Assembly (NCBI GenBank): GCA_964355955.1 | Contig: CAYHFQ010000003.1 | Span: 31,777-95,776 of the forward strand | Length of the DNA: 64,000 bases | DNA from: an uncultured Gammaproteobacteria bacterium | GTDB taxonomy: Bacteria; Patescibacteriota; Patescibacteriia; UBA9934 | Direction of reading: 5' to 3' | Shown: positions 14,178-42,864 of the stretch, piece after piece | How the letters are laid out: each line of letters opens with the position of its first letter | Position numbering within the stretch: the first letter of the stretch is position 1 | The notes under the pieces: generated by a model | Told to the model about the DNA's origin: nothing | Seen by the model: only the letters and a program-made list of their open reading frames with translations | Database searches by the model: none | Program-made: the position numbers and the translations under genes

Positions 14178-14184
14178 TTTTCGT

Positions 14185-16299: not shown

Positions 16300-17357
16300 G
16301 GCTTAGCATTAAGGTGAAAACTGTTGACCATCATCTCAAAAGTCTGCAAATATTCGATTTGACTGCGAGTGCCAAGATCGTAGGTGAGGGTTATGACCGA
16401 CGTGGCGTTATCGAGGTAAGTAGTCCTGTCGTCCGCGGTAGTTAAACCGTAGAAGCCATCTTTGGTTAGGGATTCTTTAAGTTGCTTGGCATCGTTGCCA
16501 GGTTGTTGGGCGTTATACCAGTCGGCTAAAGATTGTGTGGCAACCTTGGCCGTAGTACCAACGCTGATACTAGCTTGACGGGAAGAACGGAAAGCAATGG
16601 AGGTGCTGTCGGCTGAAGGGACTGGCGTCCAAGTCGTCGGGTAAAAGATTGTGAAAGCGAAAGCGGCGTCCGAGAAGACCTTAACAGCGCCGGTGTCGAG
16701 CAAAGTTAAAGGAGCTAAGCCGAGAGGGTCATAGCCGTGGAAGACTTCGTTGCCATCTAAATAAGTGTCCTTGTCAGAATCTGGTTCGCGGAAGTTAGTG
16801 CCGTAAAGCAGTTCCTCGATGTCGGTGAGGCCATCACTGTCAGTATCTTTGGCAGGAACAGGAATAGCAGCTTGAGCAGCAGCGGCGGCGGCATCTTGAG
16901 CAGCCTTGGCGGCGGCTTCAGCGGCGCGCTGCACTTCCTGTTGTTTGAGTTGGTTGAGTTGAGACTCGGCTAACTGTTTTTGCTGTTTGGCGGAGTCGAT
17001 TAGGCGGTAAGCAGCGAAACCGCCAGCACCGAGCACGATGAGCATGACGAAGAAGGTGATGAGGGGGCCTTTCCAGCTGTGCTTACGCTTTCGAGCCTCC
17101 CCTAGCCCCTCCATAGCTGGAGAGGGACTTACGACAGTTGGTGGAGCGACCACGGGAGGAGGAGGAGGTGGTGGAATGGGTTCTGGGCGGGGGGCGGTGA
17201 CCCCGCCTATTACTTCGGGTGATAGGCTAGCTTCGACGCCGTAAAACTCCCGCGGCATGGTGTGAATCACCACGTCAGTTGGCCCAGTAGTAGCCTCGAC
17301 GGTAGACGGTGAGGCCGTCACTGTGGGGTTAGGAGTTTTAGGCTTGCTGCCGAACAT
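16296..17357 (-). CDS. Single-pass membrane protein with a Pro-rich N-terminus and a C-terminal thrombospondin-type-3-like calcium-binding repeat (DTDSDGLTDIEE...DSDKDTYLDGNE).
   Basis: ORF translation. Paralogous in architecture to the next two genes. Contains the degenerate 35-nt element at 17095. Confidence 0.5.
   Translation of the reverse strand: MFGSKPKTPNPTVTASPSTVEATTGPTDVVIHTMPREFYGVEASLSPEVIGGVTAPRPEPIPPPPPPPVVAPPTVVSPSPAMEGLGEARKRKHSWKGPLITFFVMLIVLGAGGFAAYRLIDSAKQQKQLAESQLNQLKQQEVQRAAEAAAKAAQDAAAAAAQAAIPVPAKDTDSDGLTDIEELLYGTNFREPDSDKDTYLDGNEVFHGYDPLGLAPLTLLDTGAVKVFSDAAFAFTIFYPTTWTPVPSADSTSIAFRSSRQASISVGTTAKVATQSLADWYNAQQPGNDAKQLKESLTKDGFYGLTTADDRTTYLDNATSVITLTYDLGTRSQIEYLQTFEMMVNSFHLNAKP
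17095..17130. repeat. Degenerate copy of the 35-nt GC-rich element (GCCTCCCCTAGCCCCTCCATAGCTGGAGAGGG) inside the 16296..17357 coding sequence, encoding SPSPAMEGLGEA.
   Basis: Alignment to E1-E4; the stem is partly eroded. Confidence 0.35.
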
Positions 17358-18026: not shown

Positions 18027-18845
18027 TTATGGTTTGAGCGGATCGTGGCCGTTGGCGATCTCTACACTATCGTCGTAACCGTCGCCGTCCGTGTCCGCTT
18101 TTTGGTCGCTCGTGCCGTACTTGAATTCCTCAGCTAGGCTAAGGCCGTCATGGTCGGCGTCGATGGAAGTGAAGACGTCATGACAACTGGCGGCAAAGTC
18201 AGCGCTGAGAGTGTCGCAACCGGCTGGGTTACCGGCGGCAATGGCTGCTTCCAAGGCGGCCTGCTGGTCGCACTGATCTTCCGCGATGCCGTAAGTGCTA
18301 CAGGTACCAGCAGCTAGAATAGCCGGCAACATTTGAGCTTGGCAGCTGGCCTGACGTCTGGCTTCTTTGATGAGGTCACAAAGTTTGTAATCCTGAGCGT
18401 CGACCGCCAACAAGAAAGTGACCATGTCCTGACAGTTGCCTTTGACGTCGCCTGGCAAGGCGTCGCAAGTTTTAATCTCCTTGGTGTCGCGGGCGATGAG
18501 ATTGACGCAGTTGTTGTAGGCGGCGTCGGCTAGGCCTTCACAAGCGGTAGGGGCAGCGGCCTGACGAGCCAGATTGGACTGTGTTCGCTCGGCACAGGCG
18601 GCTGGATCCTTCTCCTGACTACAATCGGCGACTGCTTGATCAATGCGATCTTTAACGGACACGACCGAGCTTGGGACGGCGGAGTTAAGGGAATTGAGAA
18701 TGAAGATGACAATGAGAGCCACGACTGCCCCACCGACCACAATACCACCGCCGAGGAACAGCTGGTTACGGCGAACCTGGAACCACTTTTTAGGTGGTTC
18801 TGGCGGTAGGCCTGGGGTGAAGTATTGTGGCTCTAAAGTATTCAT
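18027..18845 (-). CDS. Single-pass membrane protein with a Cys-rich ectodomain and C-terminal DADHDGLSLAEE / DTDGDGYDDSVE repeats.
   Basis: ORF translation. GGAGG of element E2 lies 10 nt upstream of the ATG. Confidence 0.5.
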   Translation of the reverse strand: MNTLEPQYFTPGLPPEPPKKWFQVRRNQLFLGGGIVVGGAVVALIVIFILNSLNSAVPSSVVSVKDRIDQAVADCSQEKDPAACAERTQSNLARQAAAPTACEGLADAAYNNCVNLIARDTKEIKTCDALPGDVKGNCQDMVTFLLAVDAQDYKLCDLIKEARRQASCQAQMLPAILAAGTCSTYGIAEDQCDQQAALEAAIAAGNPAGCDTLSADFAASCHDVFTSIDADHDGLSLAEEFKYGTSDQKADTDGDGYDDSVEIANGHDPLKP

Positions 18846-18849
18846 AAAT

Positions 18850-18883
18850 GCCCCCTCCTAACTCCCCCATAACTGGGGGAGGG
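18850..18883. repeat. 35-nt GC-rich palindromic element (E2). It fills the 44-nt spacer between the giant-gene stop and the next start codon, and its AGGAGGGGG segment serves as the Shine-Dalgarno sequence.
   Basis: CCCCCTCCTAACTCCCCCATAACTGGGGGAGGG on the plus strand. The minus-strand sense is ...GGAGTTAGGAGGGGGCATTTATG. Confidence 0.65.
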
Positions 18884-18889
18884 TTTTAA

Positions 18890-21800
18890 TTACGGTGAAC
18901 AGTAGTTGAACTTGACGTTGCTGATGTTGACTTGGCCCTCGCCGGCGAAGGTGACGCGAAGTGGAAGAGTTTGTTCGGCGGACTGATCGCAGATGAAACC
19001 TTCTGGCCAAGGGATAGCCACACCGGTGCCCTCCATGACTGAACCCGAGGTAGTAGTGCCGCCGGAAGTGACGAGTGTAAAGGTAGGTTGAGTGATGGAG
19101 GCGACGATTGAGTTATAAGCGTCGGTGATGGCACTGGATGAGCTGCCGTGGTAGGCGTAGTCGATACTGGTGAGGTTGTTTGGCTGTGTTCTATCCACTG
19201 TGTAAATGGCGGGATCGTTACTCGACCAACCAGCAACCGTGCGGATGAAGCTGCTCGAGGTGGTCAAAGCGATGGTGTAGAGTTCGTAATCTGGAATATC
19301 ATCACCGTTCTCGTCGACGCCCTTAATAATATCGGCAGCGTCGGTCGTCGCGGCTGGATCATTGGCCTCGCCATCAGTCAAAAGGACAACTATTTTACGA
19401 GCATTAGTAACGGAACTTTGTGCATCAAGAAGGGTTTTAGCGGCATCAAGTCCTAGGTCCGTAGGCGTACCGCCATCGGCATCATAAAGATCGATATAGC
19501 CAGCGTATTCAGCCTCGGCAGTTGAGTCGGCGAAGGCTCTGGTAGTAACCTCTGTAACTTCCGTACAAGATGTATCTGTACTTAAGCAGCCACCTCGGTA
19601 TGTGACTAGCCCGACATGCATGTTATCTACGGAATAAAGTGCAGACAATGAGTTGGTCAGTCCCTCTTTAGCAGCATTCAACCGAGCAGATGAACCGTCT
19701 ACACGCCCATCGAAGCTCCAATTCATCGAGTTTGACAGATCCGTCACGAAAACGACGTAAACATCTGGTGCAGTCACGTTATCGAGCGAGACGTCCGCCG
19801 TGAGGGTAGCACCCAAGCGACAAGCTGGGAAGGTGATGGTAGCCGCGTTCGGAAGGTCGGAAGTGGTGCTGTCGGTGTAAGAGTAGAGGTCGACGCTGCT
19901 CGATGAGGCAGCACCTGGTTGGTTGTCGGTCATCAGCATGGCGTCGGAGAGATATGTTTCTGGGCAGGTGCTGTTACAGCTGCTGGCACAGACTGGGAAC
20001 TGACAGTCGTTGCTTGAACAGTCAGCATCCGAGAGACAAGCGACACCGAGGCCACGAGCGGTGTCTGTGCTGTCGCCGCCATTACATTGGCCGACGGTTT
20101 GGCAGACCTCGTTTTCGTTAGCAGTGCCATCGGAATTAAGATCAACCGAGAAACGCTGGCCGTTATAAGTACAAGAATTGGAACCGACTAGAGTATAGCT
20201 AGTACCGGTGCTCGTGGCGTCGTCCCATACTTGAATAGGGGAAGAATCAGAGACCAGGCGAATAGCTGGAACGTAGGAGTTTGGCAGATCGTAAGCGTCG
20301 CAGTACTCGTCGCCGTTCGCCACGCCGTCGCCGCAGAATTCACCAGAGAGGCTGGTGTACTTACAGCTGACGGAACAGGCGGTACAGGTGGATTCGTAAG
20401 CACTGGTACAGCCGGCGCCGTTGTTTACGCCCTCGTCACACTGCTCGGTTTCGAGTTCCAAGTAACCGTCGCCGCAGACGTTGGTTTTACACTGGTTGGT
20501 GCAGGTGTCGCCGGAGTCCGTGTTGCCGTCGTCACATTCTTCACCGGTATCGACCACGCCGTCGCCGCAGTTATTGAGAGCTTTGCAAGTAATGCCCTGG
20601 TAACCAGTAGCTGCATCCGTCCAGTTACAGGTGCCGCCGCTAGCCCCGTCGTCATCACAAACGCGAGTGCGGTAGGTTTGATAAGTGTTGTTTGAACAGG
20701 TGCCGCCAGCGCCACAGTCGTCATTAGTAGTACAGGCTTGGCCGACGAGGGTGGCGTCGTCGCTGAATTGGCAGACGGTGGAGACAGCACAGGCTCCAAA
20801 CGCCGGAGACTCCTCACCACCAGCGGTCAATCCACACTTTGGTCGCAAGCTCGTGCGGGATGATGAAGAGGTACCTGCCTCACATTGGCTGTCGGTCTCA
20901 CAAGCCTGGCCAGCCATGGTTCCTGATCTGTCGTTACAGATAGTGCCTTCATAAGAATCGAGGTCGCCATCACAGACTTCCCCGCTGTCGATAACGCCGT
21001 CGCCGCAGTAAGAAGCTGGACCTTGGCAGTCCCAGGCACAGGTGTTGTTCGGGTCAAATTCGTAATCACCATTAACGTAGCTGGCGCTCGTGGTACCGCC
21101 GCAGACATAGTCGACACCGCCAGTAGGACGAGCATATGTGGTGGTAGTCGAGCCACAGTCGCAAACTTCCCCACCGGCCAGGCTGCCGTCGCCGCAGTAG
21201 AAGGCGTCAACCGTAAGTGAGCAACTGGAGCCGCAGTAACCGTAACGTCCGTTCAATGAGCCGTCGTCGCAAGTTTCGCCGAGTGAGGTGTCGGTGACAC
21301 CGTCGCCGCAAGAGGAGACGACGCAGGTGGCCGAGGAGTCCGCGATGAAGGCGGAACAGGTGCTGTCGCAAACTTGAGATTGGATACCATTAGCATCGTC
21401 ATCGACCACGCCGTTAAGATCTGAATCGACCGTCAAGTCGGTATCGCAAGTGGCAGTGTCGCCACCGCGCTGACCGATTTCGCAGGCTTCCCCACCATTA
21501 ACAACGCCGTCGCCGCAGTTGCCGGTGCTGCCGTAAACGGTGGCGCCGTCGCAGAAGACTGCAGTAGTGAAGCCTTCAGCAGTACTGAGCGGGCTCGAGA
21601 CTTGGTACGTTACGGCGTCGTCGGTTGCTGTGTCGTAGTCGTAGTACCAACCAGCGGCTGCGTATTCGAGGTCAGCGTAAAGAGTGTAACTAGCGCTGCC
21701 GCCAGCTTTGTAGTGATAAACATGGCTGCCAGCTGGACAGATGTACTGGCCGTTGGCTTGGTTGACGCAAGTTGCAGAGTCGTAACTAGCTAGAGGATCT

Positions 21801-24800
21801 GCACCACAGCCGAGGAAGGCGTTGAGCGGATCCGCCAGCAATGAAGAATCACCAAGAGCGCCACCGAGCAAGTCCGTCCAAGAACCCCAGACGCTGGCAC
21901 CGAGGCCACGAACGAAGGTGCCAGAAGCGAGAGTCGGTACGTCGGAAGTGGCGTAAGTAGAGCTATAAGTGCTGACTTCGCTGCTGATAGTACGGAGATC
22001 GGACAAGCGCTTGACGTCGCGGGTAAGTTTGATTTTGTTGTTGGCACAAGTTTCGCCAGTGGCACAGTCGGCGTCTGAGGTACAAGATTTAGCCGTGTAG
22101 GCGGAACCGTCGGAACAGAGGGCGACATCGCTGACGTTGACGGCAAAGGAGAGGTTAGCGAGGAGCTGATCGTAAATAGCTTTGGTACTTTCGCTGGCAC
22201 CATCGTTGTAGGAGATGACGTAAATGTTGGGGTAGAGGGTGCTGCCACTCTCGTTAACGGCAGCGATGTAGGTGGTGCGGCCGTCTTGCACAGCCTGGAA
22301 ACCGTCCACGGTAGTAACAGATGGGCTACCCGAGAAACCCTGAGCTGTGAACCAAGCAGCTGGACTCAGGTAGTCGGAGTTGGTGACGACGCGGTAACCA
22401 ATGGCGTCGCCGCTGCCGTCGTCCACCTTGAACAAGTATTCTTTGAGAATGTTATCCGTGATGGAGTAGTCGGCGGCATTTTGGACGGTGAGGGCTGCGT
22501 AGTCGTCGGAGGTATCTTGAGCCACACCAGCGTCGCGGCAGTAGAAGTCTGAGAAGTTCATCCAGCCAGCCGAACCAAGCACGGCACCTTCTGCCAGGCT
22601 GGCGTCATCACTCCACGGGAAGGTGGCAGTCTTGATGTCTGGCCAAGTGTTTTCGCAGAGGAAGGCGATGACTTGATTGGTACCAGCCACGGCGGTGCCC
22701 TCAGAAGTACCAAATTGATCGTAATCGATGGTAGCGGTGGCAAGTACGTTAGCGTCACCGTTCTCACCAACGGCGGCGACCACTGCGGTGTCGGCGGTAT
22801 CAGCAGTTGAACCACCTGCAGTAGTGACGATGGTAGCATTCATGTCTTCTGCCCAAGCCCAGTTCCAGGAATAGACGCCGGAAAGAGATTCGATCGGCTC
22901 GCTCGTGGTGCCGTTATGGGTGTAAGCGGTGGCAGTGAAGTCGTGGCTTTCAGTAGCTTGTGAGAAGTAGCTTGGGCTCTCGGTATCACCGTCGGTTACT
23001 GACACACTATCCAAAGTACAAATTTCGGTACCAGTCGTGAAGTCCTGCCAAGCAAAACCGGCTGGGTTGAACATGGCGACGTCGTTGCTTGAGTGGACGC
23101 CTGGACGGGAGGAGTCGGTGACGTCGGCGTCGGTGATTACTTCCAATGTATAGCGAGCGTTGGCGAGCAACGGAATGTCATAGTGCATGACAACTTTGTA
23201 GTTGGTGACGCCCAAAACGTCGACAGCCTCCTGTGAGAACGAAGTGACCGGGACCACACAGTCGTTAGCGGCAGCTTCGGCGGAACGACCGGTGAATATT
23301 TGACGTACAGAAAGCCAGCCACGGGAATACCAGGCCAAGTGCGAGGTAGCGGCGATAGCTAAACGGGTATGGTCGGCCGGACAGATGTGATCTGGAACTG
23401 AACCTAAGTTGAGTTTAGCAAACATGAGAGGTTGAGCAGTGCCGCCTTCTGGTGTCGACAAGAAAGAGGCTAAGTCCATCTCTGTAGTAAAGAGGCCAGA
23501 AATTTCGGCATTGCGACAAACGTTGCGACCAGTTGGGTGCAAGGTGACGGTTGGGCGGGCCATGCAGCAGTTATTGACGCCAATGCCGACCACTTCCGGG
23601 AGTTCACAGTCGCTGTCTTGCAAAGCAGAACAGACGAGGGTGTAGGTGGAAGGGGTGAGTTCGGTTGAAATACCAGACTGAGGTTCGGTAACGTACATGC
23701 TAGCCACGGCTAAGTTGGTGTCGGGGTCGACTTCTTGAGCAGCCTGGAGGCCGATGGCTGCCAATTGCATGTCGTCGACGTTACTGTCGCCAGAGGAGGC
23801 TTCACAACCAGGGTACTCGCCCTGACCGGTGACGCCGTCGCCGCAGAAGGAAGGAATAGTGTAATCGGTAGAAGAACCAAGGTATGACGTGGCAGCTTCG
23901 GTCAAACAAGTAGCCGAACAGCCGTCACCATCCACACTGTTACCGTCGTCGCAAGTTTCGTAGAAAGGAGTAATAGTAAGGTCGCCGCAACTGGCACCGC
24001 CAATATCCGCTGAGCTAACAGAACCTTCACTCAGACATAATGAAGAACAGCCGTCGCCGTTGGCTACGTTGCCGTCGTCGCAGTCCTCGCCACCGATGGT
24101 GGTCTCGAAAGCGCGGTCATGGTTGCCGCAAGTCGCGTTAACTGAGCGCGAACCCTCGTTCAAACAAGTAGCGGAACAACCGTCGCCACTGCGCGTGTTG
24201 CCGTCGTCGCAGTCTTCGCCAGAATGATCGCCTGCTTGGTCTTGGCGACCATTGCCGCAAAGTGGAGCCCAAGTTGGACCACCGTCGCCACCCTCGCGCA
24301 AACAAGAAGCGGAACAACCGTCGCCGTCGTTAGTGTTGCCGTCTTCACATTCTTCACCGTAGCTGTTGCCAGCCCCGTCACCGATTCTACCGTCGCCACA
24401 AATGGCCGCGTACGGTTGGCTGCCGCCTGGGATACAAAGTGAAGTACAGCCAGCGGTAATACCGCTCTTGTCGGTGTCGACCTGAGCATTTGGCAACCAA
24501 CTAGCAACTTCGATCGAGCTGTTACTGCCGTCGTCGGTCCAGTCGGCAAAGCTCCAGTCGAAACCAGTGGTGGCGAGAAGCTGGCCCGAGGTGGAACAAG
24601 CGTCCATTTCACCGTAAGCGGAAACAGTGAAGTTTTGACGCTCACCAACGGTGTTGGCAGTGGCGGCTTCTGGAGAAACAGCTAAGCGATTAACAGCACA
24701 GACGTCAGTCCCCTCCTTAACGCCAAAGGTCCAGGAATAGTCACCGGTGTAATTGGTGCGGGTGAGAGCGACGCCGCTCGGAGTCGTGACGTCACCGGAG

Positions 24801-27800
24801 ATAACGACGCGATAGAATTTGCCTGGGACGAGATAGGTAGTGGCTGGCAAAACGAGATCGACCTGCTGACAATGAGTAGGAGCATCACTGGCGCAATTAG
24901 CGGCCGTGACTGTGTAGTCTGAGAATTCATCGCCGACGCCGACACTGCATAGTTCGTTAGGACAGGTATAGAGTTTAACTGCACCAGGCGCAACTAAGCT
25001 GACGGCGTCCATATCCGTGTTGAAGCTGGCACCGATTAGACCGTTACGGCAAGCCTCATTACAGCTCGGCCAAAAATCTGCGACGTAAGGATCAGTAAAG
25101 TTAATGGTAAGGACAGCGTTACCCTCAACGGCGCTGGCTCGCTCCTCTGCGGTCACGTCCGTGGTACCTTCAGCGTTGGCTTGAACGAGAGTGCAGCTAG
25201 AATTACCACCAGCGCAAACAGGGTCAGTGCTCGAGGTGAGGCCAGCGATACTATCGTCCACCGTCCAGTCGTAAACGTATTGAGTAGCGTCGAGAACTAC
25301 GCAAGCGTCGCTTGGTAAAGCGTTAAAGATATCGGTATCACCCTCCGCGTCGATGGTAGAAGTAGCTGGCGAAACTGAGACGTTGTTGACGGCACAGGCA
25401 GCACCAGTGCTCGAGACAGTGAAATGCCAAGAGGCGTTGGCAGCCATAGCAATGCCGCCAGGTGAGGAGATGGCAGCCGTGCTGACGGTGACTTTGTAGC
25501 TAGTGGCCGTGAGGAAAGGAGTGTTTGGAATCCAGGTGAAGGTAGTTGGTGAGGAGTCAGAAACCGTGAGGACACCGTCGGCCGTGATATCGGTGCCGCC
25601 AGTACAGGCGTCGCTATTACACTTTTCAATCTTCACAGCATCGTCGATCGTGCCGCGGTTCATGAGTTCTGTGAATTCGGCGTAAACTACGGCCTGTGGA
25701 CAGACTTCTGTAGTGAACGTGGAGTTTGGTACGGCACTGATGCGACCGCCGGCGGCTAAGTCACACTCGGTGACGATGGCTGGCGTGGTTGGAATGGTAC
25801 CAGTTGAGAAATACCACTGGTAAGCGGCTGGGCCAGGAGGATTGGTGGTATCAGTAGTTGAGTCACCGTAAGTGAAGTTGAGCGTGTTACTGGCGACACC
25901 TGAGGCCGAAAGAACCTGAACCGGACCAGAAGTGGCGCCACCTGGGGCCGTGACAGTTATCGTGGTGCTGTTCCAGGTACTCGTCAAGGTAGCTGGAATG
26001 CCGCTGAAGAAATTGACTGTACCGGTGGTAGAGCCGAGACTGCCAGTAATGGTGATAGTGTCCCCCGCCGCGCCAGTGTCTGGCGAGATGGAACAGATGC
26101 CAGGGCTAGGTGCGTTTGAGGTGATAGTAAAATCCGTGAGCGCTGAGGTGGCAGAATTTTGAGCGACGAGATAGATAGCGAAGTTGCTACCAGCGACGAC
26201 TGGGTCGCCGTTTTGGTAGTTAGCTGGCACGATGACCGTGACTTGAGTGTCTGACCAGTAATCAGAACAAGCGGCTGGGAAGCTGACGTCGGCCAAGGCC
26301 TTGTAACCGGAGTCTTTATTTTCGAAGAAAACCTGACCAATGTCGGCACCGAAGTTACTGCCTGTGAGCGTAATGTAGTCGCCGATAGCGGCTGAGGATG
26401 GGCTGATGCTGGCGATTGTCGGGACGGTGGTGACGGCGGTGGCCAGGCTGTAGAGAATAGTATTAGAGGCAACACCGTCGACCGTTACGCCAACCGCATA
26501 ACTGCCGTCACGAGCAGCAGGAGCGGTGACGTTGAGCGAAGTGTCGCTCCAACCGCTGTATGAACTAGCGGCGTTAGTACCGAAAGAGACAGTTGAGGTG
26601 CCCTGCGTGTCACCGAAATCGAGACCAGACAGCACGACCGCGTCGGTTGGTGCACCAGAAGTCGGTAAAAGTGAGCAAAGTTTAGGGTGGATGACATCGT
26701 TAACTACGAAGTCGTCGAAAATCTGACCGTAATCGTCGTTGCTTGAATCACTGAGTGGAGTTGTGCCGCCAGTGGTAATGGTAATTGGACCAGTCACAGC
26801 ACCGTCTGGGACCATGACGACTACGCCGGTCGACGACCAGGTAGCACAAGATGGGATAAGCGCAACGACCGTGCCGCCATCCGCCGCAGTGAAAGTTACA
26901 GTTGGCTGAACTGAGCCGAAGCCGATGCCGGCGATAGTAACAAAAGTACCAACCGCACCAGAGAGCGGTGAAATATCCGTAATTTCTGGTAATTCTGTAC
27001 AGATACCGTCGAGGCAGCTAGAGCTTGGGCCGCAGTCGGCGTCCGTGGTACAGGTGCTGCCAGTGCAAGCACCGCAATAATCTAGGCTGGTGCTATCACC
27101 GCCACAGTTGAGACCGGTTTCGCCGTGACTGGTATCAATTTCCGTATTAAAGCACCAAGGTCCACGCGCTGTAACGTGGATAGTGTCGTCGCTCGTGTTG
27201 CCGGCGATATCGGTGACGGTGGTGGCTAGTTTGTAGCTGGTTGAGTTGACCAAAGCTGTGGTATCCCAGTTGGTGGCAATAGTAGTATCGGCAAGATTGT
27301 CACCGCTCGCGCCAACTGAGTCGAACTGAACGTCTTCCGCGCTAAAACTAGCGTCGGCGACCTGGCTGTCGTCCGTGGCGTGGACCTGAACGAGAGCGGA
27401 AGAACCAGATTCAACGCTGCCGCTCGGGATAGTGATAACGGCGGTTGGGTTAGCAACGTCGACTAAGCTGCCAGTGGTAAAGGAAGATGTACAACTAGTG
27501 GTAGTACAAACAAGAGCATTACCGGTGGTACTCTTAATGGCGGTCGTAGTGGTGACGTTGTAAGTGGTGCCGTCTGGAGCGTCGTAGTCAAAGCAGTAAC
27601 GTGTTTCGTTAGGTGTTGGACAAGCAGCGTTAGGACGGAAGCTGGCGGCGTTGCCGCTAACAGTAATGGTACCGTCGACAATAGCGCCACTCGCGGCGTT
27701 GGTGACTACGAGGTTGCCGTTGAGGGTGGCGGCATCGAGATTTTTGGAGAAAGTAACGCGGAGTAAGATATTGCGGATGGCGACTGGGCCGTCAGGCGAG

Positions 27801-28273
27801 AAATCAGTGACTGTAAATGAAGAGGTGCTGCTGCTACCGCCGAATCCCCCACCACCGCTGCCATTGTCGCCAGTATTACCGCCGCCAGCACCCGTGGCGC
27901 TAATAAGAGCGGAGAGGATGAAGCTGGCAATGGCGAATGAAAGTAAGATGATGGCGAGACCGATGACACCGCGGATCAGAATTTTCTTGGCGCGTTCTAA
28001 CTTTTCTTCGTTGCCAGCGGCGGTCATCCAGGTGAAGCCACCGTAAAGAACAATGAGAACCGAGAGGATGCCGAGAACGCCAATGACGACGCGGATAATG
28101 CGAGCGATGATGATTTTTGGATCCTCCGCCGTGAGGCCAGAGGCAGCGCCGACGTTGGCCAAGCTGTCAGTTACCTGTGCTAGCAGGTGTGGGGTGTGCA
28201 AAAATACGCCAGCCGCAATGAGGCCAAGGACAGAAGGGAGAACGTATTTAAGGCGGAACCAACGCATAGCCAA
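18890..28273 (-). CDS. Giant (3127 aa) cell-surface protein. It has an N-terminal signal/two-helix membrane anchor, beta-rich Ig-like regions, many Myxococcus-type cysteine-rich repeats (CGDGxxxxGExCDDGNxxxGDGCSxxC) and a C-terminal von Willebrand factor A domain (DLSNSM MIDAS motif).
   Basis: Single uninterrupted 9.4 kb ORF. Repeats include ICGDGRIGDGAGNSYGEECEDGNTNDGDGCSASC and NCGDGVVDTGEECDDGNTDSGDTC. The C-terminus has VYVVFVTDLSNSMNW...VVLLTDGEAND. Confidence 0.8.
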   Translation of the reverse strand: MAMRWFRLKYVLPSVLGLIAAGVFLHTPHLLAQVTDSLANVGAASGLTAEDPKIIIARIIRVVIGVLGILSVLIVLYGGFTWMTAAGNEEKLERAKKILIRGVIGLAIILLSFAIASFILSALISATGAGGGNTGDNGSGGGGFGGSSSTSSFTVTDFSPDGPVAIRNILLRVTFSKNLDAATLNGNLVVTNAASGAIVDGTITVSGNAASFRPNAACPTPNETRYCFDYDAPDGTTYNVTTTTAIKSTTGNALVCTTTSCTSSFTTGSLVDVANPTAVITIPSGSVESGSSALVQVHATDDSQVADASFSAEDVQFDSVGASGDNLADTTIATNWDTTALVNSTSYKLATTVTDIAGNTSDDTIHVTARGPWCFNTEIDTSHGETGLNCGGDSTSLDYCGACTGSTCTTDADCGPSSSCLDGICTELPEITDISPLSGAVGTFVTIAGIGFGSVQPTVTFTAADGGTVVALIPSCATWSSTGVVVMVPDGAVTGPITITTGGTTPLSDSSNDDYGQIFDDFVVNDVIHPKLCSLLPTSGAPTDAVVLSGLDFGDTQGTSTVSFGTNAASSYSGWSDTSLNVTAPAARDGSYAVGVTVDGVASNTILYSLATAVTTVPTIASISPSSAAIGDYITLTGSNFGADIGQVFFENKDSGYKALADVSFPAACSDYWSDTQVTVIVPANYQNGDPVVAGSNFAIYLVAQNSATSALTDFTITSNAPSPGICSISPDTGAAGDTITITGSLGSTTGTVNFFSGIPATLTSTWNSTTITVTAPGGATSGPVQVLSASGVASNTLNFTYGDSTTDTTNPPGPAAYQWYFSTGTIPTTPAIVTECDLAAGGRISAVPNSTFTTEVCPQAVVYAEFTELMNRGTIDDAVKIEKCNSDACTGGTDITADGVLTVSDSSPTTFTWIPNTPFLTATSYKVTVSTAAISSPGGIAMAANASWHFTVSSTGAACAVNNVSVSPATSTIDAEGDTDIFNALPSDACVVLDATQYVYDWTVDDSIAGLTSSTDPVCAGGNSSCTLVQANAEGTTDVTAEERASAVEGNAVLTINFTDPYVADFWPSCNEACRNGLIGASFNTDMDAVSLVAPGAVKLYTCPNELCSVGVGDEFSDYTVTAANCASDAPTHCQQVDLVLPATTYLVPGKFYRVVISGDVTTPSGVALTRTNYTGDYSWTFGVKEGTDVCAVNRLAVSPEAATANTVGERQNFTVSAYGEMDACSTSGQLLATTGFDWSFADWTDDGSNSSIEVASWLPNAQVDTDKSGITAGCTSLCIPGGSQPYAAICGDGRIGDGAGNSYGEECEDGNTNDGDGCSASCLREGGDGGPTWAPLCGNGRQDQAGDHSGEDCDDGNTRSGDGCSATCLNEGSRSVNATCGNHDRAFETTIGGEDCDDGNVANGDGCSSLCLSEGSVSSADIGGASCGDLTITPFYETCDDGNSVDGDGCSATCLTEAATSYLGSSTDYTIPSFCGDGVTGQGEYPGCEASSGDSNVDDMQLAAIGLQAAQEVDPDTNLAVASMYVTEPQSGISTELTPSTYTLVCSALQDSDCELPEVVGIGVNNCCMARPTVTLHPTGRNVCRNAEISGLFTTEMDLASFLSTPEGGTAQPLMFAKLNLGSVPDHICPADHTRLAIAATSHLAWYSRGWLSVRQIFTGRSAEAAANDCVVPVTSFSQEAVDVLGVTNYKVVMHYDIPLLANARYTLEVITDADVTDSSRPGVHSSNDVAMFNPAGFAWQDFTTGTEICTLDSVSVTDGDTESPSYFSQATESHDFTATAYTHNGTTSEPIESLSGVYSWNWAWAEDMNATIVTTAGGSTADTADTAVVAAVGENGDANVLATATIDYDQFGTSEGTAVAGTNQVIAFLCENTWPDIKTATFPWSDDASLAEGAVLGSAGWMNFSDFYCRDAGVAQDTSDDYAALTVQNAADYSITDNILKEYLFKVDDGSGDAIGYRVVTNSDYLSPAAWFTAQGFSGSPSVTTVDGFQAVQDGRTTYIAAVNESGSTLYPNIYVISYNDGASESTKAIYDQLLANLSFAVNVSDVALCSDGSAYTAKSCTSDADCATGETCANNKIKLTRDVKRLSDLRTISSEVSTYSSTYATSDVPTLASGTFVRGLGASVWGSWTDLLGGALGDSSLLADPLNAFLGCGADPLASYDSATCVNQANGQYICPAGSHVYHYKAGGSASYTLYADLEYAAAGWYYDYDTATDDAVTYQVSSPLSTAEGFTTAVFCDGATVYGSTGNCGDGVVNGGEACEIGQRGGDTATCDTDLTVDSDLNGVVDDDANGIQSQVCDSTCSAFIADSSATCVVSSCGDGVTDTSLGETCDDGSLNGRYGYCGSSCSLTVDAFYCGDGSLAGGEVCDCGSTTTTYARPTGGVDYVCGGTTSASYVNGDYEFDPNNTCAWDCQGPASYCGDGVIDSGEVCDGDLDSYEGTICNDRSGTMAGQACETDSQCEAGTSSSSRTSLRPKCGLTAGGEESPAFGACAVSTVCQFSDDATLVGQACTTNDDCGAGGTCSNNTYQTYRTRVCDDDGASGGTCNWTDAATGYQGITCKALNNCGDGVVDTGEECDDGNTDSGDTCTNQCKTNVCGDGYLELETEQCDEGVNNGAGCTSAYESTCTACSVSCKYTSLSGEFCGDGVANGDEYCDAYDLPNSYVPAIRLVSDSSPIQVWDDATSTGTSYTLVGSNSCTYNGQRFSVDLNSDGTANENEVCQTVGQCNGGDSTDTARGLGVACLSDADCSSNDCQFPVCASSCNSTCPETYLSDAMLMTDNQPGAASSSSVDLYSYTDSTTSDLPNAATITFPACRLGATLTADVSLDNVTAPDVYVVFVTDLSNSMNWSFDGRVDGSSARLNAAKEGLTNSLSALYSVDNMHVGLVTYRGGCLSTDTSCTEVTEVTTRAFADSTAEAEYAGYIDLYDADGGTPTDLGLDAAKTLLDAQSSVTNARKIVVLLTDGEANDPAATTDAADIIKGVDENGDDIPDYELYTIALTTSSSFIRTVAGWSSNDPAIYTVDRTQPNNLTSIDYAYHGSSSSAITDAYNSIVASITQPTFTLVTSGGTTTSGSVMEGTGVAIPWPEGFICDQSAEQTLPLRVTFAGEGQVNISNVKFNYCSP

Positions 28274-28276
28274 AAA

Positions 28277-30190
28277 CTAAGGTGAAAGAGGCAAGAGGTC
28301 GCAAGTCTCGGACCGAGCTTCGCCGTTACAACAAGATGGATTGTCGACGCTAACCTGACAGCAGGCAGAAGTTGGGTCGTTGGGATTACAGGTACCGCTC
28401 GTGGCGTCTGGCCCGTTAGCAGGGACGTAACAGTTCTGGTACTGATTTTCGATACCCTGGCTAGCCAAGACGCCGTAGAGATAGGTCTTGCCCTCGGTCG
28501 AGGCGAGGAAGGTGCCGTGGCCGATGGAAGTTTGGGTGTGGAGCGTGGCTTGGTTAACTGGATCTGTGACTTCGGCGCCGCTTAAGTCGATGCCCACACT
28601 GCGCGGTAAGAACCACATTTCGTGGCTACCGCCGGTCGAAGTTTCTTTGTTGCTCATGCTGACGTTAGCACTGGTTAGTGACAGGGTGCGCATGATATCC
28701 CAGAAAGTGATGGTAACAGTTTGATCGAGCGCCTGGTCCTCGCCGAGAATGCTAGGCGAAATGTTCATGATGGTTGGGCCGACTAGGTTAATGTCGCCCG
28801 AGGTTGAGAAGGTCCAGTCTGGGAAGTCGTCGCCAGCCGTGCCGTCCTGGTTACCGTCTAAGCTGTTCGAGGCAGCGTCGACGATACCATCGTAGTTTGG
28901 TGGAAGGTTGTCAGCTTGTGGTGGGCTGGCCGTAGTGGTAGCGGCGGCAATGCGGAGCGTAATGTCGTCGTTAGCCGGCAAACAGTAAATAGTGGAGCCG
29001 CAAGAGTTGGTGCCGCAATCGTCAGTCGAAGTGAAGGTAATAGTTTTGTAGCCGTTGCTGATTTGGTAGGTACCGGCTTGAGCCGTGCTAGTAGCCCCGC
29101 TCACAGTTTGGATGTTAGAGAAGCCGCTAGTGGCGGTGCGGGTACCGGTGGAAGAGGTTGGGTCGATAGCCTCGTTGAAGGTGACTTCCACGGAAATGTT
29201 GCGGTCGAAGGTTTGATTTTGCGCTGGGACCACGGCCACGACGTGCGGTGGAGTTAAGTCGATAGTGGTGCCAACGGTGAAGGACCATTCGTAACCGCCT
29301 GAATAAACACCGGTGAAGGCGTCCTGGCTATCTGCTGTTTTGATGGCAGTGTTGAGCGAGATCGTATAGAGCGTGTCAGCAGCGGCCGAACCGAGGTAGC
29401 CTTGTGGGACGAAGGTAAAGGTAGTGAGGTCGTCGGTGAAGTAAACGTCGACATCGGTGCGAACTACCTCGAGACCGGTATCAGGGTCGACGGAGGAAAT
29501 GGCGACCATGGTGCTATTAATGAGAGTGCCGCTGGCAACATCGTCGCTGAGATCGGTGCCAGTACCGCTCGTGTTGTAGTCCGCAATAAAGGAAGGGATG
29601 TCCATTGGCTCGGCGAAAGTGACCATGACGTGCGTGTTGCGAGCGATGTCGACAGCGTTGCGTTCTGGGTAATGGTCGCGGAGAATGCCGGCACCGAGAG
29701 AACCGGACAAGACTTCCACGGACACGACACCGTTACTCGAGGTGTTACTGCCAGATCCAGAGCCTGCGCCGAGGGCGTTTAAAATGAAGGTAGCGATACC
29801 GTAAGCGCCGAGAACGATGATGATACCGATAGTGCCATTGATGAGTGTACTTTTGGCGCGTTTGATTTTATCCTCACTGCCGCCGGCGGTCATCCAGAGG
29901 ACGCCAGCGTAGATGATGAGAATAAGGAACACGACGCCAAGCACACCGAGCACGACCGAAATAATAGTGCCGATGATGGTCAAGAGATCCGTGTTCGCAA
30001 AGCCGGCTGTGGCGCCGACACTGGTCAACGCTGCCGTTGAATCTTGAGCTAAGGCGAAGTGCGGATGAGCAACCGCAAAGGCTGCCAGTGCGGCAGCGAA
30101 GGTGGTGAATGATGCGACTCGTTTCAAGATAGAAGAATAGACCACAGGAAAGATGCAAACTGCAGAACCAATGCTCACAGTATACAACAT
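28277..30190 (-). CDS. Large (637 aa) surface protein whose N-terminal anchor is shared with the giant protein downstream (LWMTAGGSEDKIKRAKSTLINGTIGIIIVLG versus FTWMTAAGNEEKLERAKKILIRGVIGLAIILL).
   Basis: ORF translation. The stop is 3 nt from the giant-gene start, indicating an operon. Confidence 0.7.
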   Translation of the reverse strand: MLYTVSIGSAVCIFPVVYSSILKRVASFTTFAAALAAFAVAHPHFALAQDSTAALTSVGATAGFANTDLLTIIGTIISVVLGVLGVVFLILIIYAGVLWMTAGGSEDKIKRAKSTLINGTIGIIIVLGAYGIATFILNALGAGSGSGSNTSSNGVVSVEVLSGSLGAGILRDHYPERNAVDIARNTHVMVTFAEPMDIPSFIADYNTSGTGTDLSDDVASGTLINSTMVAISSVDPDTGLEVVRTDVDVYFTDDLTTFTFVPQGYLGSAAADTLYTISLNTAIKTADSQDAFTGVYSGGYEWSFTVGTTIDLTPPHVVAVVPAQNQTFDRNISVEVTFNEAIDPTSSTGTRTATSGFSNIQTVSGATSTAQAGTYQISNGYKTITFTSTDDCGTNSCGSTIYCLPANDDITLRIAAATTTASPPQADNLPPNYDGIVDAASNSLDGNQDGTAGDDFPDWTFSTSGDINLVGPTIMNISPSILGEDQALDQTVTITFWDIMRTLSLTSANVSMSNKETSTGGSHEMWFLPRSVGIDLSGAEVTDPVNQATLHTQTSIGHGTFLASTEGKTYLYGVLASQGIENQYQNCYVPANGPDATSGTCNPNDPTSACCQVSVDNPSCCNGEARSETCDLLPLSP

Positions 30191-30208: not shown

Positions 30209-31333
30209 CTAGGTTGTGGAGAACATTTTAGCGATGGCGGTTTTTAGTTCTATCAGGCCTGTTTTGGCGTGTGCGGAAACTACAACGCCCCCTCTAACTC
30301 CCCCATAGCTGGGGGAGGACGTACTCAAAAGTTTTTTGATGGTGGCCGGCTTCTTGATGGCGTCGATTTTATTGTAAACGATGAGACGTGGATGGTCCGC
30401 GATATTCAACTGCTGCAGCACATCATCGACCACCGCCATCTTAGCAACGTACTTGGGATCAGCCACGTCGACGACCTGCAAAAGTAAATCGGCGTTAGCG
30501 GCTTCGGAGAGCGTGCTGTGAAAAGCGCGGATGAGCTGGGGTGGGAGGCCGGCGATGAAGCCGATGGTGTCCGAGAGTAAAATAGTCTCGTTAAGTTCAG
30601 GAATATAAACGTCGGCCACGCGCGTGTCGAGGGTGGCGAAGAGCTTATCCGCGGCGTATTCCTGGCGTTTACCGAGCGCATTTAAGAGCGACGTCTTGCC
30701 GGCGTTGGTATAGCCGACCAAGGCGACGGTTTTCTTTTCTTGGCGTCGACGATGCTGTTGGTGCTGGTCGCGCACGCTTTGGCACTTCTCGAGCTTCTGC
30801 AAAATCTGCTTTTCCTGCTCGCGTAAGTGGCGCTTCATCGCTTCCGTGTTGCCTTCCCCACTACCGCCGACTGTACCACGACCACCGCGTTGACGGCCGA
30901 GTTCCGCACCCATGTTGAAAATACGGGGGCCCATGTGACGCAAACGGGCTAGTTCGATTTCCAGCTTGGCCTCGCTCGTTTTAGCATGTTTGTCGAAAAT
31001 GTTGAGAATGAGGTCGATGCGATCCCAGACCTGTATTTTGGCACCACGAAGCAGCTCTTCGAGATTGAAAATTTGTTGCGGCTTTAAGACTTCGTTAATG
31101 ATGAGCAAATCGGCACCGAGCAACTTGCCTTCTGCCACAATCTCCTCCACCTTGCCGCTGCCGATGTAGGTGCGATTGTCGGGCTTAGCGCGACGCTGGA
31201 CGGTTCGGACGACGGCTACTCCCCCGTACGTCTTCGTCAATTCCTCGAGCTCAGCGAGACGCTCTAAAGCCTCGGCCTTCGGCACGGTGTAATGAACGAG
31301 GTCGGCGAGAATGGCGCGGCGAAGTGTGGGCAT
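30209..31333 (-). CDS. hflX: GTPase HflX.
   Basis: HflX N-domain plus G-domain (VALVGYTNAGKTSLLNAL, DTIGF, NKID). The C-terminal region carries the in-frame 35-nt element (SSPSYGGVRGG). Confidence 0.9.
   Translation of the reverse strand: MPTLRRAILADLVHYTVPKAEALERLAELEELTKTYGGVAVVRTVQRRAKPDNRTYIGSGKVEEIVAEGKLLGADLLIINEVLKPQQIFNLEELLRGAKIQVWDRIDLILNIFDKHAKTSEAKLEIELARLRHMGPRIFNMGAELGRQRGGRGTVGGSGEGNTEAMKRHLREQEKQILQKLEKCQSVRDQHQQHRRRQEKKTVALVGYTNAGKTSLLNALGKRQEYAADKLFATLDTRVADVYIPELNETILLSDTIGFIAGLPPQLIRAFHSTLSEAANADLLLQVVDVADPKYVAKMAVVDDVLQQLNIADHPRLIVYNKIDAIKKPATIKKLLSTSSPSYGGVRGGVVVSAHAKTGLIELKTAIAKMFSTT
30285..30318. repeat. 35-nt GC-rich palindromic element (E3) inserted in-frame in hflX, encoding SSPSYGGVRGGV.
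   Basis: The minus-sense sequence TCCTCCCCCAGCTATGGGGGAGTTAGAGGGGGCGTT translates to S S P S Y G G V R G G V. Nucleotide sequence is near-identical to E1, E2 and E4. Confidence 0.6.
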
Positions 31334-42727: not shown

Positions 42728-42864
42728 GTCGCTCGCAACCGCCGTATCTCCTGTTCCTAGCTGCGCCTCGTCAACCGCACGAGCTCACTGACCTCGTCTG
42801 ACTCGGGAGCTCGACGCAGGGCCGAGGCTAGTGTCGTCACAGGAGACACGGCAGTCGCTCGCTC
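42728..42864. repeat. Structured intergenic repeat, copy B, beginning 1 nt after the der stop. Outer flanks are as in copy A. The inner ~75-nt Y motif is GCCTCG-TCAACCGCAC-GAGCTC-...ACCTCGTCTGACTCGG...-GAGCTCG-CGCAGGGC-CGAGGC.
   Basis: Aligned to copies C and D. It has nested stems: outer CTCCTGT/ACAGGAG, middle GCCTCG/CGAGGC, inner CGAGCTC/GAGCTCG. Confidence 0.65.

Follow-up and report, generated by a model that had tools for sequence, protein, structure and literature searches.

Within the window, the whole 64,000-nt stretch of DNA that was analysed, hflX and scpA carry a near-identical short repeat. hflX (30209–31333, minus strand, 374 aa) is an open reading frame with 7999 homologues bearing HflX Pfam domains and with matches to HflX structures in the PDB; scpA (59951–60667, minus strand, 238 aa) is an open reading frame whose homologues carry PF02616. 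The pattern TCCTCCCCCAGYTATGGGGGAGYTAGAGGGGGC gives exact 33-nt matches at two places in the window, 30287–30319 in hflX and 60272–60304 in the central linker of scpA, both on the minus strand, against an expectation of 0 (100 shuffles). The two copies score 54.4 and 59.9 bits, respectively, with a covariance model, and encode SSPSYGGVRGG and SSPSYGGARGG. On the minus strand of hflX the C-arm CTCCCCC (30311–30317) is followed by the loop, the G-arm GGGGGAG (30298–30304) and a further G-rich block, the mirror box GAGGGGG (30288–30294); the corresponding parts in scpA lie at 60296–60302, 60283–60289 and 60273–60279 of the same strand. An initial annotation of this DNA had described a palindromic element lying in the same frame of both genes. 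For this pair the description stands: the pattern is matched twice, both genes are real, and the proposed 8-bp hairpin (CTCCCCCA/TGGGGGAG) is present with a 4-nt loop. The coordinates given were 1–4 nt out, and the element, while it does form a hairpin, is not a simple palindrome, as the third, mirror-repeat G-box makes plain.

In the window, a covariance-model scan with filters off detects exactly five copies, and every one of them is on the minus strand. Two intergenic copies had been missed. One (14141–14181, 55.8 bits) lies 4 nt past the ftsA stop, with its hairpin at 14156–14175, a TTA spacer and the box at 14145–14151. The other (18847–18887) was also found with the covariance model and lies between the stop of a gene for 3127 aa (18890) and an ATG at 18845, with the hairpin at 18862–18881 and the box at 18851–18857. 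Both belong, like the hflX and scpA copies, to subfamily A. The fifth (17091–17131, 48.4 bits, E=8e-12) is located in a 353-aa membrane-protein gene (16296–17357, minus strand), an open reading frame with syntenic orthologues in the L121 and L122 loci and in FtsA loci, and encodes SPSPAMEGLGEA. Its C-arm CCTCTCC (17119–17125), G-arm GGAGGGG (17106–17112) and mirror box GGGGAGG (17096–17102) place it in a second subfamily, B; what had been taken for a degenerate copy is a true family member whose hairpin is kept by compensating changes. Three further copies lie just outside the window in the same genome, bringing the total to eight, all on one strand, at a density of about 1 copy per 10 kb. The repeat is spread through the small genome of this groundwater Uhrbacterium.

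Alignment of 59 copies shows a common layout of pyrimidine arm, loop, purine arm, spacer and mirror box (CTCCCCC-AGYTAT-GGGGGAG-spacer-GAGGGGG), in which the purine arm pairs with the pyrimidine arm and is followed by a spacer of 2–3 nt. The whole unit is 31–43 nt long. Taking all 59 copies together, 99.4% of the hairpin cells are paired; the two subfamilies differ by two compensatory pair swaps, and the centroid structure of the hairpin has an energy of about -16 kcal/mol. The exact mirror box, 3–4 nt downstream, accompanies 47 of 49 A copies and all 7 B copies, and the mirror proper to the other subfamily is seen in 1/49 A and 0/7 B copies. With the box as a third strand, a single strand is predicted to be able to fold as a hairpin plus a reverse-Hoogsteen strand. 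Class II intrastrand-triplex motifs are ordered 5'-pyrimidine stem, loop, purine stem, loop, reverse-Hoogsteen purine stem-3', the third stem being a mirror repeat of the purine stem that forms antiparallel G*G-C and A*A-T triplets (PMC4666352). By its order of blocks and its mirror relation, the repeat is, as judged from sequence, a class II motif of the BoxC/PIT/TM type.

The likeness to the BoxC/PIT/TM(ECO) repeats (Bachellier; Hoyne & Maher 2000; Holder et al. 2015, PMC4666352) extends beyond the three-block class II layout. Both have a C-rich stem, a loop (3–6 nt in BoxC/PIT/TM), a G-rich stem, a short spacer (about 3 nt and often TTA in BoxC/PIT/TM) and a mirror G-rich stem. BoxC/PIT/TM units of about 35 nt likewise occur in tens of copies per genome, are patchy between close strains and are linked to local rearrangement, not to transposons (PMC4666352). 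However, the TMECO pattern CCCTCNCCC N3-6 GGGNGAGGG N3 GGGNGAGGG is not matched by the repeat: TMECO has 9-nt stems (CCCTCNCCC), whereas the stems here are 7–8 nt (CTCCCCC or CCCCTCC) around an AGYTAT loop, a different sequence family. TMECO is described as always intergenic, as showing no strand bias and as having no link to mobile elements, with no report from CPR bacteria (PMC4666352); here about 60% of copies lie in genes, in frame, and the repeat is strongly strand-polar and flanks a DUF559 gene.

The short hairpin, with its 8-bp stem and 4-nt loop, also invites comparison with REP sequences, which are defined by a GT[AG]G tag 0–2 nt 5' of a paired 7–20 bp stem with a loop of 2–5 nt (PMC6006769, PMC3733652). 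The repeat could then be a REP/REPIN- or MITE-type element of the usual sort, dependent for its movement on a RAYT/IS200-family or DDE transposase whose gene lies elsewhere in the genome, and its third G-box would be incidental. The stem and loop fit the REP definition, a conserved, tag-like GWAAAC precedes the hairpin and intragenic REPs are known (PMC3733652), but a GT[AG]G tag within 0–2 nt of the hairpin is absent; the flank is instead GWAAACY, ending 0–1 nt from the stem, and GTAA is found in fewer than half of the copies. REPs are also mainly extragenic, whereas about 30 of 51 copies here are in genes. In 54/56 copies the mirror box changes together with the arms, so it is not incidental. 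A tblastn search with IS200 and RAYT sequences gave no match in 0.97 Mb of partial genomes, a weak test, and a Pfam search of the repeated genes in the window for a transposase yielded only housekeeping and unknown proteins. Overall, an element of this kind is an improbable explanation, even allowing for the inverted doublets and the replication-strand orientation described below.

Stem loops next to genes may also act in the transcript, as a cis-acting hairpin that sequesters a Shine–Dalgarno sequence or serves as a terminator. In the 18847–18887 copy a GGAGG stands 8 nt before the ATG of the gene at 18027–18845 and is thus likely to be its Shine–Dalgarno site, and the two intergenic copies of the window score as terminator-like on the plus strand. 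However, of about 15 intergenic copies only 1 is positioned where it could serve a start codon, most copies lie inside genes in both orientations, and orientation tracks GC skew, not transcription. No Rfam family is matched, and triplexes of the purine motif are not formed by RNA (PMC4666352). An RNA role of this sort is very unlikely. A riboswitch-like switch was rejected as well, given a loop and tail that show no covariation by eye, the empty Rfam result and the single copy (18865, i.e. 18847–18887) that precedes a start codon. A G-to-A change destroying the Shine–Dalgarno site, considered as a mark of coding copies, is present in the two window copies but is not a general feature.

Comparison with relatives separates insertion from inheritance at several sites. 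The HflX segment proved to be an insertion relative to orthologues: nine residues are absent from 30 orthologues, one of them 88% identical, and at the DNA level the L001 and L002 loci show a 27-nt gap. The AlphaFold model of HflX puts the insertion between helix 329–339 and the last strand with pLDDT <50, i.e. in a low-confidence loop. By these alignments, the copy in hflX is an insertion of 27 nt that is specific to the lineage and situated in a loop. ScpA orthologues are split: three of the five closest relatives carry the segment, and it is missing from the equally close P0123 and P0124. The scpA copy is shared with L003 (UBA11707), while L004 has a subfamily B version there; the 66% relative L120 is too distant to set base-level boundaries at this empty site. 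That the peptide is a native HflX/ScpA motif, or the product of an assembly chimera, is scarcely credible. The shared peptide itself is all that speaks for it, whereas nearly all orthologues lack the segment, orthologous copies have diverged, and the identical sequence recurs in independent assemblies (ENA NODE_13, 100% over 11.9 kb; Logan contigs; UBA and JGI MAGs).

Turnover is evident at the other window sites. In L122 the sites 14159, 17110 and 18865 are all empty. In L121, a relative with 96% FtsA identity, the 17110 site is likewise empty (net change +18 nt), a different repeat occupies the 14141–14181 site, and half of a subfamily B copy, split by another repeat, lies at the 18847–18887 site. 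Elsewhere, the copies L123:6403 and L123:7110 are absent from L003 and L004, genome J has subfamily B where the window has subfamily A at two orthologous sites, and sets of copies differ between species 82% identical. Copies have thus been gained and lost between close relatives, both between genes and within genes. The gaps in HflX and ScpA orthologues, together with about 50 copies at unrelated sites, argue for a dispersed repeat that tolerates coding positions, in agreement with the original suggestion of an insertion-tolerant element resembling Rickettsia palindromic elements (RPEs); the polymorphism in presence and absence suggests that the repeat is mobile.

The insertions are not clean events of constant size. 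Net length changes at filled sites are +27, +18, +12, 0 and -23 nt, with no fixed insert length, and the zero is an exact same-length replacement in TatD. Direct repeats in the flanks are clear in few copies only (CTGTAAGT, CTTAAAC and GTAAAC, of 8, 7 and 6 nt), CTTAAAC being that of the 14141–14181 copy; others are short or none. Among the sites compared, no clean pair of empty and filled sites reveals an element of constant length or a duplicated target, and flank repeats and net lengths were too inconsistent to confirm a target-duplication model. Additionally, pristine copies occupy the same loop of two NDH-2 proteins only 43% identical. These same-loop copies and the subfamily switches call for re-insertion, gene conversion or selection, as a simple one-off transposition would not account for them.

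Across the genome collection the repeat was found at 49 loci, mostly in Uhrbacteria/CPR MAGs, with copy number varying widely between MAGs. About 30 of the 51 copies (~60%) fall in open frames 900 nt or longer, and all 20 host frames that were checked carry Pfam domains, SecA, CopA, RadA, FtsK, UvrC, HolA, TatD and NDH-2 among them. The shared frame and orientation seen in hflX and scpA does not hold as a general rule: the coding copies use three reading frames, and gene-sense and gene-antisense copies are both common. Two matches on viral contigs have the hairpin with no box and are probably unrelated. DNA-uptake sequences, DGR target sites, CRISPR repeats and integron attC sites were dropped by reasoning on copy number, context and architecture.

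In-frame presence in unrelated genes (hflX, scpA, secA, radA, copA, ftsK, uvrC and others) is shared with the RPEs, which PMC10969869 (citing Ogata et al. 2000) describes as in-frame palindromic repeats in housekeeping genes of a reduced genome, with a conserved and tolerated peptide, as here. According to the same source, RPEs are about 100–150 bp and confined to Rickettsia, whereas the repeat here, at 31–43 nt, falls short of that length, is read in three frames, has a triplex third block and belongs to Patescibacteria.

Very short G/C-rich palindromes that are apparently mobile, are nested and can be coding are found among the small dispersed repeats of cyanobacteria and the GC clusters of yeast mitochondria. 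Their sequences differ from the repeat described here, and we know of no nuclease partner for either.

The sense strand of the element is the C-rich strand in 36/44 loci (p=2.5e-5). All copies are co-oriented within every UBA11707 contig, as they are (8/8) in the genome of the window. The polarity holds whatever the direction of the gene and speaks for a mechanism that works at the replication fork on single-stranded DNA, with the identity of the C-rich strand as a given replication strand being assumed. Orientation tied to the replication strand is characteristic of IS200/IS605 elements, a feature that the repeat shares. Strong polarity with GC skew would also be expected of a strand-polar DNA signal selected by the host (KOPS- or Chi-like, or acting in replication or priming), in which case coding copies would be tolerated by-products. 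The density of about one copy in 10 kb and the same-site conservation in the 43%-identical NDH-2 proteins fit such a signal. However, KOPS and Chi are conserved in presence and density, whereas 485 kb from 66 related FtsA loci hold 0 copies, the sets differ between sister species (82% identical) and MAG copy number is highly variable; the FtsA metagenome relatives at <=81% identity are too diverged downstream of ftsA to provide empty sites. Old shared copies moreover decay at about the neutral rate (L123:3881 vs L003:616). A host signal is, in our judgement, decidedly improbable.

A candidate parent for the solo copies is found in two CPR loci, in each of which a DUF559 (Vsr-like) gene lies between inverted copies. 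In L028 the order is A copy, DUF559 gene, B copy, the whole being in frame inside a TrmH gene; in L011 it is B copy, DUF559 gene, A copy. Back-to-back inverted doublets in two MAGs have the spacer RGACTCCACG+TGTCW, which equals the first 10 plus the last 5 nt of the interior of the L028 DUF559 cassette. Relative to the doublet spacer, the cassette occupies exactly the central CACG^TG position, and its two junctions read CCACG/CCATG. The doublets in the two MAGs have the shared ends of MITEs and an interior that internal deletion would explain, a result that concerns the doublets and does not extend to the window singlets. No DUF559 gene was found in 83 kb of this genome or in the UBA11707 loci examined; the link to the nuclease rests on the two CPR units and on flanking hairpins elsewhere.

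These units again recall REP/REPIN sequences, stem-loops of 20–40 bp that occur as singlets and inverted doublets, some of them intragenic in known proteins, with a gene between inverted copies in the REPtron, and whose biology is linked to single strands and replication, as proposed here. However, REP/RAYT units flank a Y1 transposase and bear GT[AG]G/CGTC tags, whereas the repeat flanks a PD-(D/E)XK DUF559 nuclease, has GWAAAC 3 nt from the stem and has a conserved mirror box. That the enclosed gene is DUF559, not a Y1 transposase, speaks further against an ordinary REP-type element. Vsr, DUF559 and DUF2726 form one nuclease group with a group I intron homing endonuclease, and Vsr-like (EDxHD) homing endonucleases such as I-Bth0305I belong to the same superfamily group (PMC3424549). 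A DUF559 domain joined to a SPOUT/TrmH-type gene has been described (PMC1829167), as in L028. The known homing enzymes of the group reside in introns or inteins, whereas here the gene is bracketed by repeats, in frame, and no intron or intein features were seen.

In 8 other bacteria, pyrimidine-arm/purine-arm hairpins stand beside the DUF559 genes, a suggestive count of hairpins only, with the triplex motif unscored and no background control; several of these hairpins are followed by TTA/CTA and a G-box. In Neisseria the hairpins are only downstream, at 180–460 nt. In E. coli, the stop of ycjD and a canonical TM motif are about 167 nt apart, for which the chance is ~0.002 by our own estimate from 23 copies per genome (PMC4666352). 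In all, DUF559 genes adjoin such motifs in 11/11 loci examined from five phyla, including solitary genes with single motifs. The repeats beside DUF559 genes in Picosynechococcus and Pseudanabaena may be small dispersed repeats.

The nuclease could nevertheless be a passenger. The repeat may spread by recombination, gene conversion or polymerase-stalling errors, with DUF559 merely homing to the doublet centre, much as IS elements target REPs, a possible though rather unlikely alternative. A cassette at the exact CACG^TG doublet centre fits insertion as well as it fits deletion; the variable net lengths (including the TatD swap) and the subfamily switches at orthologous sites look like patch replacement; and both the grouping of DUF559 with a homing endonuclease (PMC3424549) and the association of TM motifs with local rearrangement (PMC4666352) are in keeping with it. 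However, the presence of such motifs at all 11 DUF559 loci, singles too, goes beyond what a single homing site would lead one to expect, and identical 31–43 nt copies at dozens of unrelated sites would still require a copying mechanism.

The explanation that best accommodates these observations, and which we hold to be moderately probable, is a triplex-type repeat whose solo copies are the ends of a mobile DUF559 unit of about 0.5 kb and are tolerated in proteins. In the complete unit two inverted copies would flank the gene for the Vsr-like PD-(D/E)XK endonuclease; solo copies would be single ends, and back-to-back doublets internally deleted forms. One strand, as single-stranded DNA, would fold into the hairpin plus reverse-Hoogsteen third strand, and the DUF559 nuclease may nick these folded ends and so drive copying into new sites. 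Within genes only frame-keeping events would survive, the C-runs and G-runs being translated in open frames to peptides rich in Pro, Gly, Ser and Ala that would sit in loops, linkers and tails. A wider proposal, that DUF559 endonucleases are the dedicated enzyme of BoxC/PIT/TM-type repeats across bacteria, is put forward only tentatively. On this proposal a DUF559 gene flanked by two inverted triplex motifs would be a minimal mobile element coupled to replication, whose solo ends and doublets would populate genomes from E. coli to CPR and, in CPR, would remodel essential proteins through in-frame loops.

Knowledge of the BoxC/PIT/TM repeats goes back to the 1990s, yet, to our knowledge, no origin, enzyme or function has been established for them. 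The repeat described here extends this kind to the ultra-small genomes of Patescibacteria (CPR), where it lies inside genes and is strand-polar. Such repeats can live within essential genes as translated loops, and their replication-strand polarity argues for a mechanism on single-stranded DNA. DUF559/YcjD, present in E. coli, would supply a testable candidate enzyme, one that may have a part in moving the repeat. In CPR genomes, usually called streamlined, the repeat gives rise to protein insertions specific to a lineage and to turnover between genes.

Exact matches of TCCTCCCCCAGYTATGGGGGAGYTAGAGGGGGC are located at 30287–30319 and 60272–60304 of the window, both on the minus strand; each is part of a long ORF, and the two are translated in the same frame. 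The pattern had no matches in 100 shuffles. The first is inside a 374-aa ORF (30209–31333), HflX by Pfam and PDB matches, and encodes SSPSYGGVRGG; the second is inside the 238-aa ScpA ORF (59951–60667) and encodes SSPSYGGARGG. The near-identical in-frame element described in hflX and scpA by the initial annotation is therefore present. Looser searches and a repeat finder added three copies, also on the minus strand: 14141–14181, four bases 3′ of the ftsA stop; 18847–18887, located between the stop of a 3127-aa gene and the ATG at 18845; and 17091–17131, a subfamily B copy within a 353-aa membrane-protein gene. A covariance model built on 59 copies, run on the window with filters off, returned exactly these five (48–60 bits each), with no other score above 12 bits. 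The copy at 18847–18887 provides the sole Shine-Dalgarno-like sequence, 8 nt 5′ of the ATG of gene 18027–18845. On the plus strand, 14156–14175 and 18862–18881 score as intrinsic terminators (8-bp GC stem, then GTTTT); as the local genes lie on the minus strand, these would affect antisense transcripts only.

The consensus reads G-W-A-A-A-C-Y, CTCCCCC-AGYTAT-GGGGGAG, a 2–3 nt spacer, GGAGGGGG-C and then Y-K-T-A-A, with hairpin pairing in 99.4 % of cells across the 59 copies. Subfamily B, whose members include window copy 17091–17131 and the scpA copy of a JGI genome, has arms CCCCTCC/GGAGGGG and box GGGGAGG. Lying 3–4 nt downstream, the 3′ box exactly mirrors the copy's own purine arm in 47 of 49 copies of subfamily A and 7 of 7 of subfamily B, and the opposite subfamily's mirror box is essentially absent; the copies form a repeat family with three covarying blocks. 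Pyrimidine stem, purine stem and mirror purine stem, in that order, define the predicted layout of a class II purine-motif intrastrand triplex. The same block layout is found in the TMECO (BoxC/PIT) repeats of E. coli, CCCTCNCCC-N3-6-GGGNGAGGG-N3-GGGNGAGGG (Holder et al. 2015, PMC4666352). Purine-motif triplexes do not occur in RNA (PMC4666352), thus the conserved structure would be a DNA structure. Rfam held no matching family for the element. In Candidatus Uhrbacteria UBA11707, one protein (locus L049, 7059–7901) contains two copies, one antisense and normal (APSNSPIAGGEL), the other with about 30 nt interrupting its loop (APSNSQLARGNGTDAIAGGEL; covariance-model match 7443–7519), which suggests that something nested into the loop.

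The shared peptide segment had been proposed to be an insertion relative to orthologues, and alignments bear this out. Among 31 aligned HflX proteins, nine extra residues are found in the window protein only; an 88 %-identical orthologue is without them, and in DNA the insert is a single 27 nt gap against two independent contigs. An AlphaFold model places it between helix 329–339 and the last strand of the GTPase domain, with predicted pLDDT below 50 at residues 342–346. The ScpA segment falls in the variable central linker and is carried by the window, UBA11707 (93 % identical) and the JGI genome (89 %); the equally close ScpA proteins P0123 and P0124 are without it (net +4 residues). Close relatives were fetched through FtsA (L121, 96 % identical; L122, 85 %). 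Copy 17091–17131 is absent from both (net +18 nt). Site 18865 is empty in L122 and in L121 holds half a copy of a different subfamily, interrupted by another repeat; the site after ftsA lacks a copy in L122, and L121 has another repeat there.

Rightward extension of the same genome (ENA contig NODE_13, 100 % identical over 11.9 kb) revealed three more copies on the same strand beyond the window edge. Two of these occur in neither UBA11707 nor the JGI genome, one of them standing in place of the C-terminus of a DUF7282 gene, its stop codon and a 62 nt spacer (net −23 nt). The copy upstream of an ABC ATPase gene is also present in UBA11707, and its decay is about equal to that of the flanking sequence. 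Presence is thus lineage-specific, at coding and non-coding sites; given this restriction and the one flank-decayed shared copy, copies were gained in single lineages and some are old. In this extension (L123, 6416–6670), the gene caller's 84-aa ORF begins at an ATG within an element (AGCT-ATG-GGG); the resulting N-terminal extension is probably spurious, since the start in orthologues is a conserved ATGCGC 45 nt downstream.

Net length change at filled sites varies (+27, +18, +12, 0 and −23). The element makes a same-length replacement in TatD, two sites that carry subfamily A in the window carry subfamily B in the JGI genome, and pristine copies occupy one and the same loop in NDH-2 proteins that share only 43 % identity. 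Together with net inserts shorter than the element, these suggest site re-use or patch-like conversion.

An exact scan for the 20 nt hairpin across 185,579 species genomes gave 49 loci: about 16 copies in UBA11707, about 10 in MAG DeMMO3_42, a few in other Uhrbacteria/Patescibacteria MAGs and about 20 in two MAGs labelled Gammaproteobacteria, which are probably relatives because their genes are 69–70 % DNA-identical to window genes. Six singletons in unrelated taxa, without the 3′ box, were taken as chance matches. The 66 FtsA loci (485 kb) from relatives at ≤81 % identity gave no copies; C-arm/G-arm hairpins of other kinds that have a G-box do occur there.

Open frames of 900 nt or more contain about 30 of 51 copies, and all 20 host frames tested with Pfam are real genes: SecA, CopA, RadA, FtsK, UvrC, HolA, TatD, two CCA-adding enzymes, two NDH-2-like proteins, ApbE, RseP, a GT4 transferase and others. 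The element persists in frame within them, and its usual positions are linkers, tails or junctions between domains. It is translated in three frames, two sense (VNPPPAMGExEGA and SPSYGGxGGG) and one antisense (APSxSPIAGGE). Therefore, the common orientation and frame emphasized in the initial annotation holds for the hflX and scpA copies but is no rule. In the open frames the C-runs and G-runs translate to Pro, Gly, Ser and Ala, which may be why proteins tolerate the insert.

The copies have a strand polarity. In this genome 8 of 8 lie on one strand over about 83 kb, and on UBA11707 contigs with several copies all are co-oriented (4/4, 3/3, 2/2, 2/2 and 2/2). With the element masked, the C-rich strand is the one that holds the element's sense sequence at 36 of 44 loci (binomial p=2.5e-5); by our tally, 28 of 31 loci of Uhrbacteria type and 20 of 23 contigs follow this pattern. 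GC skew of the window plus strand is +0.04 to +0.16 throughout, regardless of gene direction, and within genes copies are frequent in sense as well as in antisense. Mutational skew fails to explain the orientation, as the element is G-rich on the strand placed in the C-rich chromosome strand. The polarity points to a process acting on single-stranded DNA at the replication fork, of which IS200/IS605 elements are a known case (PMC6006769).

Two units, candidate parents of the repeats, have a nuclease gene together with inverted copies. In locus L028, a TrmH-family methyltransferase gene (PDB 1zjr aligns to residues 28–60 and 281–326) has an in-frame cassette of an antisense A copy, a complete DUF559 domain (PF04480, E=1.5e-37; PDB 3hrl aligns to residues 170–264) and a sense B copy. 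The DUF559 gene of L011, from an Uhrbacteria MAG, is free-standing and has 49 % identity to that of L028; B and A copies bracket it in the same manner. The Vsr group of PD-(D/E)XK nucleases includes DUF559 as well as a homing endonuclease of a group I intron (PMC3424549). Nearly all copies in the two mislabelled MAGs form back-to-back doublets of the same relative orientation, and the 15 nt doublet spacer equals the first 10 plus the last 5 nt of the cassette interior. On these sequences, doublet and cassette would have the usual relation of a MITE to its parent; the same spacer would equally fit insertion of a DUF559 gene into a doublet, at its CACG^TG centre.

Plasmid records were searched with the L011 protein and eight loci fetched (Synechocystis, Picosynechococcus, Pseudanabaena, Sphingobium, Sphingomonas, Deinococcus, Azospirillum and Neisseria gonorrhoeae). 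Pyrimidine-arm/purine-arm hairpins adjoin the DUF559 gene in all eight, a count with no formal background control, and often have TTA or CTA plus a G-box after them. The Sphingobium arms (CTCCCCC/GGGGGAG) are identical to the window's; the Neisseria hairpins are downstream only, 180–460 nt from the gene. The end of the E. coli K-12 DUF559 gene ycjD falls within a degenerate motif, and a canonical TMECO lies about 167 nt past its stop; with 23 TMECO copies per genome (PMC4666352), we estimate the chance of such proximity at about 0.002. In the library of papers searched, none ties DUF559 or ycjD to BoxC or triplex repeats, and the 2015 TMECO study reported no association with mobile elements (PMC4666352). 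A DUF559–hairpin link general beyond CPR is a lead. The region 3′ of ycjD (1351217–1351420) carries, in this order, a duplicate of part of ycjD's own 3′ end, GGGTTAGGGGC and the canonical TMECO/BoxC, and looks like a remnant of a second DUF559 unit. On a Synechocystis sp. B12 plasmid (CP101712.1, 34727–37251), the DUF559 gene has a short DUF1156 ORF on one side and a hypothetical ORF of 434 aa on the other, and may split a DUF1156 methylase-type gene; in L130, for comparison, an intact 2.8-kb DUF1156 gene is beside DUF559.

Other repeats are also apparent. A 51 nt repeat (2137–2187, 4135–4185 and 60692–60742; 82–100 % identical), one copy immediately upstream of scpA, contains a perfect DnaA-box-like TGTGGATAA and a 32 nt palindrome (TGGTCTACGTCAAAGGTATACGTTTGACGTAGACCA). 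An intergenic repeat of ~118 nt (42746–42863 and 46134–46250, 85–86 % identical; partial copies at 44784–44817 and 8521–8569) is set in a plus-strand gene block near pth, dprA and a Mur ligase gene. Each member of a paralogous cluster at 8600–13660 (206–236 aa, no Pfam match) is preceded by a conserved 35 nt sequence (10321, 11908, 12743 and 13621) with a promoter score (TTGACT-17-CACAAT); further common segments are at 8595/9535 and 11274/12093. In L121, other small repeats occupy the same intergenic sites (6400–6470 and 11258–11340), including a shared ~45 nt element (GTAAAAAGGGGTCAGGTCTGGAATCGAGCATTTTRCGAWTTCRTTGG), once with a nested palindrome CCCCTCCTCTCGCGAGAGGAGGGG; the JGI genome has a tandem CCCTAAGGG palindrome (L004, 4276–4326). 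Gene ends seem to be hot spots re-used by different tiny repeats. The 3127-aa protein (18890–28273; many Cys-rich DUF4215-type repeats and a VWA domain) adjoins a 637-aa T4SS-pilin-like protein (28277–30190); this pair evolves much faster than its neighbours, being syntenic in relatives yet only about 75 % DNA-identical.

The most fitting classification is as a variant of the BoxC/PIT/TM intrastrand-triplex repeats, with membership of REP-RAYT and RPE set aside. The element differs from the BoxC/PIT/TM repeats in its frequent in-frame residence in genes, its replication-strand polarity and its putative DUF559 partner, all unreported there. The likeness to RPEs drawn in the initial annotation stands as an analogy, that of a repeat invading coding sequence. 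Copying would proceed via a single-stranded, folded intermediate that DUF559 may nick, and singlets would be solo ends.
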